Notes: a model not told the origin generated them from the sequence alone. Positions 20,629-23,953 are shown, numbered from the stretch's first letter. The stretch is DNA of 64,000 bases from a bacterium (GCA_030583725.1 CP129472.1:529902-593901), one strand, 5' to 3'. Numbers and translations are program-made.

Positions 20629-21225
20629 CTATCTCGATAAATCTGGAGTTTTGTCGTATCCAACTGCGTAATTACTCATAAAATCTTCTAACAAAACAGG
20701 TTTAAAATACCAAACCTCACTTACTCTAAAAGAGTTTGTGTGGGAAATAAAAGCAATACCCTTACTTGGATAAGCGTTTAGTGTGTAACCAACAGAATAG
20801 TCTGGGCCATAGAGAATATTTTCCGGGTTACCATAAAGGGAGACAAAGTCTTCCTTGTATTTATTGTCTTTGTTTGTGTAAACAACTTTTAGATAACTTA
20901 ATCTGTTGTCTATGATGATAACTTCAGAGTTAAAATTAGGGTTTGATGATAAGTATTCGTAAGTTTCCATATTCCCGTCCAGTTTTGCTTTTATTGCTGT
21001 CCCCATTCTAGATAAAACTTCTTCTTTTGAGCTTGTTCCAGGTGTTAATTCGTTGTATGTAGCAACATCATTATTTATTGGAAGATGTGTTGGTGTCGAG
21101 CCCTTATCTTTTCTGGTTAAAATAACTATAAAGAATAAAATAATTACGAAAAAAATTATAAAAAACTTTTTGTTATTTATAATATATAAAATTATGTTTT
21201 TCATCTTATCTAAATAATACATCAT
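20629..21225 (-). CDS. hypothetical membrane-anchored protein, last gene of the T4SS-like operon
   Basis: 198 aa. N-terminal TM, then an extracytoplasmic domain. Overlaps the upstream gene by 20 nt. Confidence 0.3.
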   Translation of the reverse strand: MMYYLDKMKNIILYIINNKKFFIIFFVIILFFIVILTRKDKGSTPTHLPINNDVATYNELTPGTSSKEEVLSRMGTAIKAKLDGNMETYEYLSSNPNFNSEVIIIDNRLSYLKVVYTNKDNKYKEDFVSLYGNPENILYGPDYSVGYTLNAYPSKGIAFISHTNSFRVSEVWYFKPVLLEDFMSNYAVGYDKTPDLSR

Positions 21226-23953
21226 TCATAAATTTATAGTGTGCTGGATTTCTTTGTCTAAAATTTCCACATCTATCGTCGGCATAGAAAGCAGCAGCTT
21301 CAGCAAATCTTTCTGAATATGGCCATGCACCGGTCTTTGTTATGTAGTCGTAAAAACAATATGGGTGAGGCTCGTTTGTTATTCCAGGATAGCTTATATA
21401 TTGGTTATACCAACTGTCATCATTTGTAGCTAGAACATGAGCTAATTCATGGAAAAGAATATAATTAGTATCTCTTTGGTTAGCTACACCCCTACTGTAT
21501 AATCTTACGTATCCATCTTCCCACCAACCCCAATAGTTAGGGTCATTTCCTGCATATCTAATATCAACACTTTTTCCACCAAGACTTGCACAGATTTTTG
21601 ATGCATATCCATTATATTCACCTTGCAAGGTAGATATTGCACCTAAAATGTATGAATATTGATCTGCGCTAAAGCCATTTTCGACGATATTGAAACATTG
21701 GTTGGGTGGGTTACCGATTCTAATTGACGCTGCACCTGAAGTTGTTTGTTCACCGCCCTCACCTGCTGTTGCTGTAACTTCAAAAGTGTTTACTACAAGA
21801 GCGTCTGTCGTAAAAACGTTGTAGGTGTTTTCATATGTTATTACATATGGTGACGCAACAGAAATTGCATCAGGGACAACAAAAGAAGATGTTGTACAAG
21901 GAGGAGTTGATGCCTCTTGAACAATTTTACAAGTGTCCTTAAATGAAATATTTGTTAAGGTGTTTCTCTTTGCGGTTATTGTGACGGTATACTTAATTGT
22001 TAAGGGTAAATCACTGTTTTCAAATGGCCCACTTGGCTCTACTGTTTTAATAACGCTAATATATGGGTTTGAAGATTGACTTAGTGACGGCGGGGCTGGT
22101 GGTATAACATATGCACTGTTGTTTATGACAAGCATTATAAAAGCAACAAGTGGAGGGAGAACTAAAAGAGTAACTATTACAGGGGTTGCAATGGCAATTC
22201 CTACCGATCTACCAATAAAACCAAGTATTCCAAAAGCACCGGTTGCCAGTGTCCCAAATCCCACTGTTGCTCCAGCAACTACAAGGCCAATACCCAGACC
22301 TGGTCCTGCACCAAAAAGCAATGCACCCAATGTTCCAGCACCAATAGCAATTGCTGGGCCCACTTTATCTTTGTTTTCCGTCCACCAAACTTTGAGTTTT
22401 GACATTGCGGCTGAAAACACTTGTCCTCCAACCATTCCAGCTACAGCTCCTATTATTGTTCCCACAACAGGGACAACACTTCCTGCAGCGGCCCCCGCAG
22501 CCCCTCCTGCAAAAGCTTCAGCCGCCATGACACCACCAGTAAGAGCTACTGATGTATATGTTGATGCGGCTTGGGCTGCGATACTTGCTCCAATCGTCCC
22601 CCCTGTCACTGTTGATATGGGTGTGACCAGTTGTGTCTTACTAAATCTACTTGCCAAATACAAAACTGGGTTTGCGGTATTTGGGGCGATTCTTACCATA
22701 AAACTTGAAAATTCACCTAGTTGGCTTGTTGCTTGCCAAGCAACAGGACTTGTCAAGCCATACCTTGCAAAAATACTTTGAACAATTGGGTCCGAATATG
22801 CCTTTTTAATTAAGCTCCCAGTTGGTAGTTTTGATATCTTTTCTGCTATGTAGCCCCTTGCATTACTCGTAAATCTACCATAAAAATACTCCCTTGATTT
22901 GTCAGAGCCAAAACCCTTAATGTTTTCTAGAAACTGGTTTTGATGGTTCCGTTGCTGTATTGAAATTTGATTTAATGAACCCAGATCAATCTTGTGTGTT
23001 GTTTGACCATCGATTTTATTATCGCTTAGTATAGTTTCAAAAGACCTTGGTCCGTAAATTGCAGAAGTAATATTATTGCCAAAAATACTTTGGGAAATTT
23101 TCTCACTAAAAACTAAGGGCTCCGTGTTTGTTTGTTGTAATAAAATGGCATTTTCTTTCGTTAGTACTGCTAGTCGATCATCATTAAGGTTGTTTGATAA
23201 AACATTTTGTCCATCTTCGTTAACTGATTTTAAAATTGAATTTTGGATCAGATTCTCGTATGTCTCTTCAGGTTTAGCTATTTTTTCTACAATTTCCACG
23301 GCCGTAGTGGTTATTAAAAGCTCCTTTTGCTCAAGTGATAGGTTGTCAAGTTCATGACCCAATTCTCCTTCGATTTTGGTTGCAAGGTCGGAAATTAAAA
23401 TTTGTTTAGGTGAAAGTTCACCCGTGTTTTTAGAAGTATCGTTTTGTGCGTACTCTCTCAAAACTTGTAAATCTTTTTGTTCAATTTCATCAAGGGGTAG
23501 TGGTTCCGGTAAAACGACTTTGGCGTAAATAACCTTATTTCTTAATTTTTCTTGAAGTTTTTGGGCTGTCGCAATTCTTTCTTGGTTTTGTTTTATAAAA
23601 TCATCGATTGTTTGCTTTTCTCTTGCTCTGATGTCTATGTTTTGCTGAGTTCTTTTGTCTGCAGCTTCCCCGAAATATTTCAATTGTTCAGGGGTTAAGG
23701 TAGAATTCACAGGCATGTCATTTGGCCTGTTTATTTCCGAAAACTTAGGAACTTTTATTAATAGCTCATAGGCCTGTTGCAGTTTTAGCTCAACCTCTTT
23801 TGGTGTTAGTCTTGAAGAAATTCCAACACTTTCTAAACGTTTGTTGAAACTAGCAATTTGTTTATTATAAATCGCCTTATCCCTTAATTTAAAATTTTCA
23901 TCAAACAACCTCCCAAAATCGGTTTGAAGTGATGTGACAGTGTTTAAATCCAT
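21206..23953 (-). CDS. large T4SS-associated membrane protein: coiled-coil N-domain, Gly/Ala-rich polytopic segment, C-terminal HExxH metallopeptidase-like domain
   Basis: 915 aa. Residues about 440-610 form Gly/Ala-rich TM helices (VirB6/TrbL-like feel). 'NYILFHELAHVLATND' HExxH sits in a Cys/Trp/Tyr-rich extracellular C-domain. Confidence 0.4.
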   Translation of the reverse strand: MDLNTVTSLQTDFGRLFDENFKLRDKAIYNKQIASFNKRLESVGISSRLTPKEVELKLQQAYELLIKVPKFSEINRPNDMPVNSTLTPEQLKYFGEAADKRTQQNIDIRAREKQTIDDFIKQNQERIATAQKLQEKLRNKVIYAKVVLPEPLPLDEIEQKDLQVLREYAQNDTSKNTGELSPKQILISDLATKIEGELGHELDNLSLEQKELLITTTAVEIVEKIAKPEETYENLIQNSILKSVNEDGQNVLSNNLNDDRLAVLTKENAILLQQTNTEPLVFSEKISQSIFGNNITSAIYGPRSFETILSDNKIDGQTTHKIDLGSLNQISIQQRNHQNQFLENIKGFGSDKSREYFYGRFTSNARGYIAEKISKLPTGSLIKKAYSDPIVQSIFARYGLTSPVAWQATSQLGEFSSFMVRIAPNTANPVLYLASRFSKTQLVTPISTVTGGTIGASIAAQAASTYTSVALTGGVMAAEAFAGGAAGAAAGSVVPVVGTIIGAVAGMVGGQVFSAAMSKLKVWWTENKDKVGPAIAIGAGTLGALLFGAGPGLGIGLVVAGATVGFGTLATGAFGILGFIGRSVGIAIATPVIVTLLVLPPLVAFIMLVINNSAYVIPPAPPSLSQSSNPYISVIKTVEPSGPFENSDLPLTIKYTVTITAKRNTLTNISFKDTCKIVQEASTPPCTTSSFVVPDAISVASPYVITYENTYNVFTTDALVVNTFEVTATAGEGGEQTTSGAASIRIGNPPNQCFNIVENGFSADQYSYILGAISTLQGEYNGYASKICASLGGKSVDIRYAGNDPNYWGWWEDGYVRLYSRGVANQRDTNYILFHELAHVLATNDDSWYNQYISYPGITNEPHPYCFYDYITKTGAWPYSERFAEAAAFYADDRCGNFRQRNPAHYKFMNDVLFR

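Follow-up and report, generated by a model that had tools for sequence, protein, structure and literature searches.

Type IV secretion systems (T4SSs) of Gram-positive bacteria include membrane-anchored cell wall hydrolases, which make up a functional VirB1 class. One of these is PrgK of pCF10, where the gene order is PrgI, PrgJ (the VirB4 protein), PrgK and PrgL; PrgK is 871 aa long and comprised of a charged 255 aa N-terminal region, one transmembrane segment and C-terminal lysozyme and CHAP domains, and PrgL is a 208 aa protein with an N-terminal transmembrane segment. TraG of pIP501 and CwlT of ICEBs1 are further examples. The present analysis concerns a gene at the PrgK position of a T4SS operon, found within a 64,000 nt stretch of bacterial DNA (GCA_030583725.1, CP129472.1:529902-593901; 'the window', from the first letter of which all positions are counted unless another locus is named). 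The gene (21206..23953, minus strand) has an ATG start and a TAA stop at 21206-21208, and its 915 aa product is identical to QY322_03120, a hypothetical protein of a metagenome-assembled genome (MAG) held by NCBI. The closest named relatives of the DnaA encoded nearby belong to Candidatus Woesebacteria, in the Microgenomates group, which suggests a Woesebacteria-like source within the Patescibacteria, or candidate phyla radiation (CPR).

In Patescibacteria, origin-proximal T4SSs of a Gram-positive-like type are known, VirB6 is scarce in the Microgenomatia, and wall hydrolases are encoded after virB4 in Southlakia epibionticum (PMC12102498). For the large, uncultivated lineage in which the present gene family occurs, a published hidden Markov model (HMM) survey found few VirB6 homologues, and VirB1 homologues that were mostly unlinked to virB4 (PMC12102498). 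The S. epibionticum T4SS locus, essential for epibiotic growth (PMC10633639, PMC12102498), resembles the one in the window in that, in strain ML1 (SEML1_0006-0019), a block encoding PrgI, a TrsD-like protein and VirB4 is directly followed by wall hydrolases, namely an M15B-like peptidase and a protein with lysozyme and cysteine protease domains. It differs in that these hydrolases are separate proteins of other families, that separate VirB6-like and NTF2-like proteins are present, and that no polytopic trunk with a swappable head has been described there.

We favour, with a moderate degree of confidence, an interpretation of the 915 aa protein as a T4SS subunit in the slot of a wall hydrolase, with an outward-facing zinc metallopeptidase ('zincin') head that would cleave the cell envelope and a cognate partner encoded by the next gene, head and partner being inherited as a two-gene cassette. 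The existence of T4SSs in the CPR, their location near oriC and the presence of hydrolases after virB4 have already been published; in the literature searched, no account was found of the trunk family, nor of a T4SS head of HExxH or M34-like type, nor of cassettes that pair a head with a partner.

A T4SS operon with exchangeable heads and partners

The gene immediately upstream, co-oriented and separated by a 2 nt gap, encodes a VirB4-type T4SS ATPase of the CD1110/PrgJ family (23956..25821, minus strand; score of 371 bits with NCBIfam NF045971, for which the cut-off is 325; Pfam P-loop_TraG, 2e-33), the same NCBIfam family as that of PrgJ itself. This adjacency bears out the T4SS context that an earlier note on this DNA, written from the bare sequence, had proposed for the protein. 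Next comes a TrsD/TraC-like gene, the product of which resembles the N-terminal part of VirB4 (25818..26519, minus strand); its matches to NCBIfam TrsD (2e-5) and VirB4_plasma (1.8e-6) are both below cut-off, and its orthologues match Pfam TraC-like. The first gene of the conserved block (26540..27577, minus strand) encodes a VirB3-like PrgI protein (Pfam PrgI, 1.5e-5, just below cut-off) with a C-terminal CarboxypepD_reg domain (1e-7), a gene also present at the related loci L003 and L007. On the other side lies a gene for a 198 aa protein, beyond which are found dnaN and dnaA on the opposite strand, and then rnpA and yidC. The same neighbourhood was seen at 7 of 7 loci inspected by hand. When 80 metagenomic loci were retrieved using the membrane-motif pattern IN[SN][GS]AY[VIL]VP, virB4 was found upstream on the same strand at all 43 with sufficient upstream DNA, and dnaN downstream on the opposite strand at all 53 with sufficient downstream DNA. 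The protein is a fixed member of an origin-proximal, Gram-positive-type (MPF-FATA-like) T4SS operon.

The family to which it belongs is modular, consisting of a conserved trunk joined, in close relatives, to unrelated alternative C-terminal enzymatic heads. Word-indexed homologue searches yield few members, 11 with the protein as the query and 13 with a 60-sequence profile, and the breadth of the family became apparent instead through an exhaustive search with an HMM and a pattern scan of metagenomes. Six of the first 11 homologues have the C-terminal 170 residues in common with the window's protein, at 24-38% identity; the closest relative of the trunk among these first homologues (P0004, 53% identical) ends in an Amidase_2 domain, and others end in M23. 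Among the metagenomic family members, 76 have a complete C-terminus, and a census of these found 40 copies of the zincin head (32 unique sequences, every one of which keeps HExxH), 21 of M23 (19 unique), nine of CHAP (eight unique) and six of Amidase_2 (all unique), with representatives of every non-zincin class being confirmed by Pfam.

These heads are exchanged between near relatives, such that the nearest trunk neighbour has a head of a different class at 25 of 54 loci. For instance, L044 (zincin) and L085 (CHAP) are 90% identical in TrsD, 91% in VirB4, 71% in the trunk, 80% in DnaN and 89% in DnaA, and have unrelated heads and following genes. Similarly, L023 (zincin) and L026 (M23) are 52% identical up to an IGxPPxxC junction and divergent thereafter. 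There are two such module junctions, one after INNSAYV(V/I)PP, where the last membrane span ends, and the other after an immunoglobulin (Ig)-like spacer. The earlier note had termed the protein 'chimeric', which is too weak a label for a modular family in which the head is exchangeable. As a separate observation, the trunk seems to evolve faster than its neighbours, its identity between L044 and L085 being well below the ~90% of VirB4, TrsD and DnaA.

The gene following the head varies along with it. In the window this encodes the 198 aa protein, p198 (20629..21225, minus strand), which has a transmembrane anchor at aa ~19-37 and a ~150 aa ectodomain. Translation may start either at the ATG at 21225, giving a 20 nt overlap with the head gene, or at the ATG at 21204, where the sequence TAAGATG leaves a 1 nt spacer. 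No match to p198 was found in Pfam, NCBIfam or the PDB sequences. Members of its family (~190 aa) follow the zincin-headed genes of L001 (10546-11238), L002 (3522-4103), L006 (10712-11257), L007 (10076-10651) and L008 (2079-2675), and share the invariant residues G63, G75, Y91, S93, Y131, G132, G156, E170, W172, F174, P176 and P194. Partners were clustered by BLAST after removal of their first 50 residues, as untrimmed proteins join different classes through their transmembrane anchors. The trimmed sequences fell into six clusters, none of which extends over more than one head class, and no BLAST edge connects partners of different classes. The zincin-head partner, of 182-240 aa, was present at 36 of 36 loci; M23 heads were accompanied by one sub-type of 145-151 aa (nine loci), another of 296-361 aa (seven loci) and a singleton of 389 aa; partners of CHAP heads were 143-221 aa long (eight loci) and those of Amidase_2 heads 228-375 aa (three loci). 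An HMM of the zincin-type partner likewise matched at 35 of 35 zincin loci, and at none of 18 M23 and none of four amidase loci. The five other partner families, likewise of small proteins with a membrane anchor, are represented among L010-L088 (for example L026, 5080-5541; L056; L012; L030; and L085, 4675-5124), and some of these non-zincin partners resemble SbsA-type Ig domains by eye.

Two of the related loci have peculiarities of their own. The VirB4 ATPase of L007 (3253-6897) is 1214 aa long and carries an intein (Pfam Intein_splicing and LAGLIDADG_3). L001 (CAZSXP010000002.1) comes from a MAG labelled 'uncultured Gammaproteobacteria', yet contains a complete CPR-type locus encoding PrgI, TrsD, VirB4, head, partner, DnaN and DnaA, and the label is probably wrong.

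The zincin head and the domains that carry it

The head occupies aa 746-915 (21209..21718, minus strand, confirmed by translation) and has the characteristics of a gluzincin. The motif stretch NYILFHELAHVLATND is present in the protein and contains HELAH at aa 835-839 (21437..21451, minus strand), in which H835 and H839 would be zinc ligands and E836 the catalytic base. Further on, the segment from Y868 to E881-R-F-A-E885 (21299..21352, minus strand) includes an ExxAE 'glutamate helix' with E881 as the putative third zinc ligand. These assignments draw on translation and on conservation across 146 cluster representatives of at most 50% pairwise identity, in which H835, E836, H839 and E881 are 100% conserved, Y868 and E885 98% each, and C753, C788, C866 and C895 86-100%. 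The six homologues mentioned above also keep H835, E836, H839, Y868, E881, A884, E885, N897 and P903. The whole 915 aa protein has seven histidines, and the chance expectation for an HExxH motif in it is 0.003. When 1.84 billion cluster representatives were searched exhaustively with an HMM, 597 proteins were returned at E<=1e-3, 366 of them at E<=1e-10; in nearly all of the 597, the domain forms the C-terminal end of a 600-1100 aa protein. A scan of genome contigs yielded a single locus.

An AlphaFold2 (AF2) model of the head, based on a 46-sequence alignment, reached a predicted local distance difference test score (pLDDT) of 92 and a predicted template modelling score of 0.89. It comprises a small beta-sheet, an active-site helix (residues 81-99 of the domain) bearing HExxH, and a later helix bearing E881 and E885. 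The zincin-type HExxH pointed out in the earlier note is thus accompanied by a metallopeptidase fold, in the AF2 model as in Foldseek searches, and is invariant in the family. That note had expected a third zinc ligand 20-30 residues downstream; with E881, fully conserved in the ExxAE helix, a candidate for such a ligand is present, though at 46 residues from H835.

Of the metallopeptidase folds suggested for comparison, the anthrax-lethal-factor-like one proved the best match by PDB-sequence profile search, hhalign and Foldseek alike. In the profile search of all PDB sequences, the 21 matches listed first all came from family M34, with E-values of 3e-4 for PPEP-1/Zmp1, 2.4e-3 for lethal factor (LF) and 3e-3 for PPEP-2; the aligned region takes in the HExxH motif, the Tyr, the ExxAE helix and a C-terminal PxxYxF motif. 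With hhalign the head matched M34 proteins at probabilities of 78-84%, and Foldseek placed LF, PPEP-3 and PPEP-1 at the top, with template modelling scores of 0.5-0.57, followed by other zincins. The glutamate E881, within ERFAE, aligns with the EFFAE of PPEP-1, PPEP-2 and LF. The conserved catalytic Tyr of M34, Y728 in LF and Y178 in PPEP-1, aligns 0-2 residues from Y868/Y870, with a Tyr-to-Glu spacing of 13 here as opposed to 7 in M34.

The head shares with M34/ATLF enzymes the HExxH motif, a Glu ~45 residues on that lies within an E-x-x-A-E helix and is, for the head, the putative third ligand, and a P-x-x-Y/F-x-F motif near the C-terminus, and it may share the Tyr ahead of the Glu, given the difference in spacing; these enzymes are, besides, its best fold matches; PPEPs, moreover, act at the cell surface (PMC8610288). 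By contrast, identity is ~10-25% and E-values are marginal, the domain has two conserved pairs of Cys, and it stands at the C-terminal end of a polytopic T4SS protein, where it is interchangeable with peptidoglycan hydrolases. PPEP homologues have been reported only in Firmicutes (PMC8610288). Pfam ATLF gave no match at E<=1 for the 915 aa protein, none of 46 family members matched it at E<=0.1, and no Pfam or NCBIfam family recognises the head above threshold. Scattered, sub-threshold Pfam matches to M64, Reprolysin_5, Peptidase_Mx1, M57 and YgjP were taken as a generic zincin signal, and a BFVD search likewise returned generic zincins only (MuF-linked, IrrE, SprT and 'M34' proteins). A metzincin reading, in which HELAHVLATND would fit HExxHxxAxxD, was rejected because positions +8 and +11 are unconserved in the family. 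The head belongs to a genuine gluzincin family, uncurated at present, which appears to be a distant relative of M34 outside the curated family. With its HExxH, its Glu ligand in ExxAE and its conserved Tyr it is active-looking, and zinc catalysis may be expected of it.

The trunk begins with an N-terminal domain (aa 1 to ~440; 22634..23953, minus strand) that is K/E-rich, Cys-free and mostly helical by AF2, and is predicted to be cytoplasmic. Residues 1-350 were modelled as mostly helical with pLDDT >90, including one helix of 45 residues; the earlier description of a 'coiled-coil N-domain' is borne out as regards the helices, with 'coiled-coil' being only loosely right. No signal peptide or hydrophobic segment was found in this domain. 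It had no fold match when the full-length model was compared with PDB, the full-length profile search of PDB sequences was empty, and the domain is detectably common to only ~57 of 155 zincin-bearing relatives.

A Gly/Ala-rich hydrophobic membrane core follows (aa ~455-617; 22103..22591, minus strand), delimited by hydropathy, composition and the 60-sequence alignment. G, A, V, I and L account for 67% of the 166 residues from aa 455 to 620, and G and A for 37%, much as the earlier note had remarked of the central ~170 aa. Alignment-averaged hydropathy defines a first block at aa ~470-512, in which a GxxxGxxxG zipper is found, and a second, uncharged block at aa ~534-612, terminating in the family signature INNSAYV(I/V)PP; between them, at aa 513-530, lies a K/R-rich loop that is conserved. 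The two blocks would amount to ~5 spans. AF2 gave no confident structure for aa 437-626 (pLDDT <50), and in Pfam the core has a weak Gly-zipper match. Weak PHROG matches to phage tape-measure proteins were also observed for aa 441-534 (nt ~22352-22633; phrog_794, E-value 1.6e-5). In tape-measure proteins, too, Gly-rich segments of a hydrophobic kind occur together with lysozyme or M23 heads; kinship with them was set aside, the matches occurring in only 2 of 11 family members and probably being compositional. Opposite the core lies a 220 aa antisense open reading frame (ORF; 22119..22781, plus strand; Ala 17%, Pro 15%). Over this stretch the GC content of the first and second codon positions of the sense strand is 0.65 and 0.55, in a genome of ~35% GC, and the antisense frame mirrors the GC-rich Gly and Ala codons. 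As it lies wholly within a gene whose product has hundreds of conserved relatives, it is treated as spurious, which is how it had been regarded before.

Between core and head is an Ig-like beta-sandwich spacer (aa ~628-745; 21719..22072, minus strand; AF2 pLDDT ~90), predicted to be extracellular, which contains the nearly invariant pair C675 and C686 and ends at the second module junction, IG-x-PP-x-x-C. Its Foldseek matches are Ig-like sandwiches (Spo0M, the GH123 N-domain, adhesin repeats and RhoGDI). The spacer is retained in long M23 variants and missing from Amidase_2, CHAP and short M23 variants. All six Cys of the protein, five Trp and 22 Tyr fall within the last 276 aa, so that the C-terminus is indeed rich in these residues; the Cys range from aa 675 to 895 and aa 1-640 are Cys-free. 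A topology with the N-terminus inside and the C-terminus outside, with two spans and then three, fits the hydropathy, the K/R-rich loop, the signal-less N-terminus and the C-terminal Cys pairs. The six Cys being pairwise conserved and the number of spans after the K/R-rich loop being odd, the HExxH domain is very probably extracytoplasmic, as had been proposed. The architecture would then run from a cytoplasmic helical N-domain through a Gly/Ala-rich core of ~5 spans and an extracellular Ig-like spacer to an extracellular catalytic head.

A proposed function for the head and its partner

The 915 aa protein and its 198 aa neighbour hold the positions of PrgK and PrgL in pCF10, and the layouts are parallel: in both the target (915 aa) and PrgK (871 aa), a charged N-terminal region precedes a membrane anchor and then a C-terminal catalytic part, which in the target is predicted to be extracellular, and CHAP or M23 domains are found in orthologues of the target. 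On the strength of this slot and layout, the protein is likely to work in place of a T4SS wall hydrolase. It differs from PrgK in having a multi-span Gly/Ala-rich core in place of one transmembrane segment, and a single exchangeable head, here a zincin, in place of lysozyme and CHAP domains; a head-specific downstream partner is, in addition, not known for PrgK. The zincin head itself belongs to no recognised peptidoglycan hydrolase family, whereas the M23, CHAP and Amidase_2 heads in the same slot of orthologues do.

It is from this exchange that the task of the head may be deduced. The M23, CHAP and Amidase_2 heads with which the zincin is interchangeable are textbook hydrolases of peptidoglycan, and amide or peptide bonds are what all four types act on; most likely, therefore, the zincin cuts envelope peptide. 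By doing so it would open the peptide part of the cell envelope, allowing the T4SS to pass or engage, with the target being wall stem peptides, cross-bridges, or a wall or S-layer protein, of either the cell's own envelope or that of a host bacterium. Of the options put forward in the earlier note, the cleavage of cell wall substrates during attachment is thus the one favoured by the wall hydrolases in the same slot, which for the same reason make pilin processing unlikely.

The partner, membrane-anchored, co-translated and located in the same compartment, would bind the head, as occurs for the wall-degrading effectors of bacteria-killing T4SSs (PMC6536674, PMC10933484). By analogy with these systems, the partner is most likely a cognate inhibitor or immunity protein that shields the producer's own wall. 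The X-T4SS of Xanthomonadales, with its X-Tfe/X-Tfi pairs, similarly combines a T4SS-linked wall-degrading enzyme with a cognate extracytoplasmic protein encoded downstream (PMC6536674, PMC10933484), and in polymorphic toxin cassettes, likewise, a conserved N-terminal part is joined to C-terminal enzymes that vary, and the gene downstream varies with them. By contrast, X-Tfes are soluble, secreted proteins recognised through a C-terminal XVIPCD by a diderm VirB-type system, whereas the enzyme described here belongs to a system of monoderm type and is predicted to form the ectodomain of a machine subunit, to which it stays tethered, and any toxicity or immunity is putative. Speculatively, rapid cassette exchange between near-identical loci hints at a variable target, for example the walls of hosts. 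Taken further, the head might be a polymorphic 'drill bit' of the Microgenomates T4SS, a wall-cutting enzyme exchanged together with a self-protection protein to fit the chemistry of the host envelope; this extension is tentative, and we hold it to be possible rather than probable.

Several points weigh against the reading of the protein as a wall-directed subunit with a cognate partner. LF and the PPEPs cut proteins, and no known M34 member is a peptidoglycan hydrolase (PMC8610288), so that a wall-peptide substrate for the zincin is deduced solely from the company that the domain keeps. The kinship with M34 is itself marginal, with a best E-value of 3e-4, a Foldseek E-value of ~1e-2 and Pfam ATLF unmatched, and hhalign of the protein against PrgK gave a probability of 0.4%, that is, no sequence homology. 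As AF2 cannot model the membrane core, the number of spans and the topology are predictions from sequence features, and the frequencies of the head classes are not unbiased, because they come from a pattern-based search and a few groundwater projects. The immunity role of the partner is reached indirectly, by inference, and the hydrolases of Gram-positive conjugative systems are not known to depend on an immunity protein. A structural role for the partner is possible, because it stands at the position of PrgL, which is VirB8-like in pCF10; strict co-variation with the head type nevertheless makes a head-specific partner more likely than a VirB8 analogue.

The relationship with LF, PPEP-1, PPEP-2 and PPEP-3, protein endopeptidases that are the closest relatives of the head in both sequence and fold, lends itself to a different account, in which the head is a PPEP-like surface-protein protease that cuts an adhesin, S-layer protein, pilin or the downstream protein, so remodelling or releasing attachments, with the partner being its substrate or regulator. 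The strict linkage of the partner gene to the zincin head would suit this too. Against it, the M23, CHAP and Amidase_2 heads in the same slot, each with its own partner family, point to a common wall-directed task, there is no conserved Pro-Pro site in the partner proteins, and the similarity to PPEPs is too distant for specificity to be transferred; we regard this account as unlikely, if still to be taken seriously. A housekeeping autolysin near oriC, with a historical linkage to virB4 and a general regulator as the partner, is very improbable. The operon does adjoin dnaA, dnaN, rnpA and yidC, and M23, CHAP and Amidase_2 are typical autolysin modules; the invariable adjacency and shared orientation with virB4, here and at the 43 metagenomic loci, an order that mirrors PrgJ-PrgK-PrgL of pCF10, and rapid replacement of head and partner between loci with ~90% identical flanks, which is unusual for a housekeeping enzyme, all speak against it. 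Finally, HExxH is a short motif and no Pfam family reaches threshold, as might be the case for a chance motif in a non-enzymatic surface domain, but the low expectation of such a motif, the invariance or near-invariance of HExxH, E881, Y868 and E885 in the family and the zincin fold of the model effectively refute this idea, for which the odds were in any case minimal.

The reading advanced in the earlier note, of a VirB6/TrbL-type channel subunit fused to a pilin-maturing protease, has rather more in its favour than these last two and is nonetheless improbable. Within the conserved PrgI-TrsD-VirB4 block, no protein other than the 915 aa one is polytopic, VirB6 homologues have been reported as scarce in Microgenomatia (PMC12102498), and there are 'extended VirB6' proteins that have large hydrophilic domains (PMC12857230); the target resembles these in its predicted polytopic core, in its large hydrophilic extensions, and in being encoded beside virB4. 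It differs in that its core is an unusual Gly/Ala zipper for which AF2 gives no confident helical bundle. ConG and TcpH are VirB6/TrbL-type proteins, as is PrgH. When PrgH served as a positive control it matched TrbL at 1e-6, whereas no Pfam or NCBIfam match to TrbL or VirB6 was found for the core, and hhalign against PrgH gave a probability of 0.1%. The 'VirB6/TrbL-like feel' of the core has accordingly found no support. Pilin maturation, furthermore, cannot explain why an amidase, CHAP or M23 domain should take the place of the head, and there is no pilin gene within the conserved block. A 552 aa polytopic protein encoded 4 kb from the T4SS block (31812-33470, minus strand) was considered as a separate VirB6 and rejected, having no TrbL match and being unlike the gene at the comparable place in L003; that it is a separate channel component is possible. 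It has a signal-like N-terminus, a loop of ~170 aa, ~8 hydrophobic segments and no Pfam match.

Surrounding genes and implications for CPR secretion systems

Between the T4SS block and the next genes, the window contains a gene for an AAA_14/DUF4143 ATPase (27710-28858, plus strand), which is absent from this place in L003 and L006. Other large ORFs encode an 820 aa protein with no Pfam domain (29347-31809, plus strand), a 786 aa protein with a signal-like N-terminus and no Pfam domain (33941-36301, minus strand) and an 850 aa protein (11396-13948, minus strand). A tmRNA at 43468-43844 (minus strand) has the tag peptide AMPKNIAPSFAYNYQMLYA, four tRNA-Ser genes (tga, gct, cga and gga) are clustered with tRNA-Arg(gcg) at 48624-50552, and a separate tRNA-Asn is found at 62938-63010.

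Besides the head-bearing protein itself, the analysis defines an uncurated zincin family (597 representatives), five uncharacterised partner families and a large N-domain without known fold match. The T4SS of Patescibacteria has been found essential for epibiotic growth in one species tested, with its role described as completely unknown (PMC11665869, PMC12857230). Outward-facing, rapidly exchanged heads with cognate partners would provide a testable handle on the surface role of the CPR T4SS, and the head classes may indicate the hosts to which the machine is tuned. Were the proposed exchange of wall-cutting heads to fit the host envelope correct, the head type would be a genomic marker of host range, and with the zincin head an M34-like enzyme acting on the bacterial cell wall would be known for the first time.

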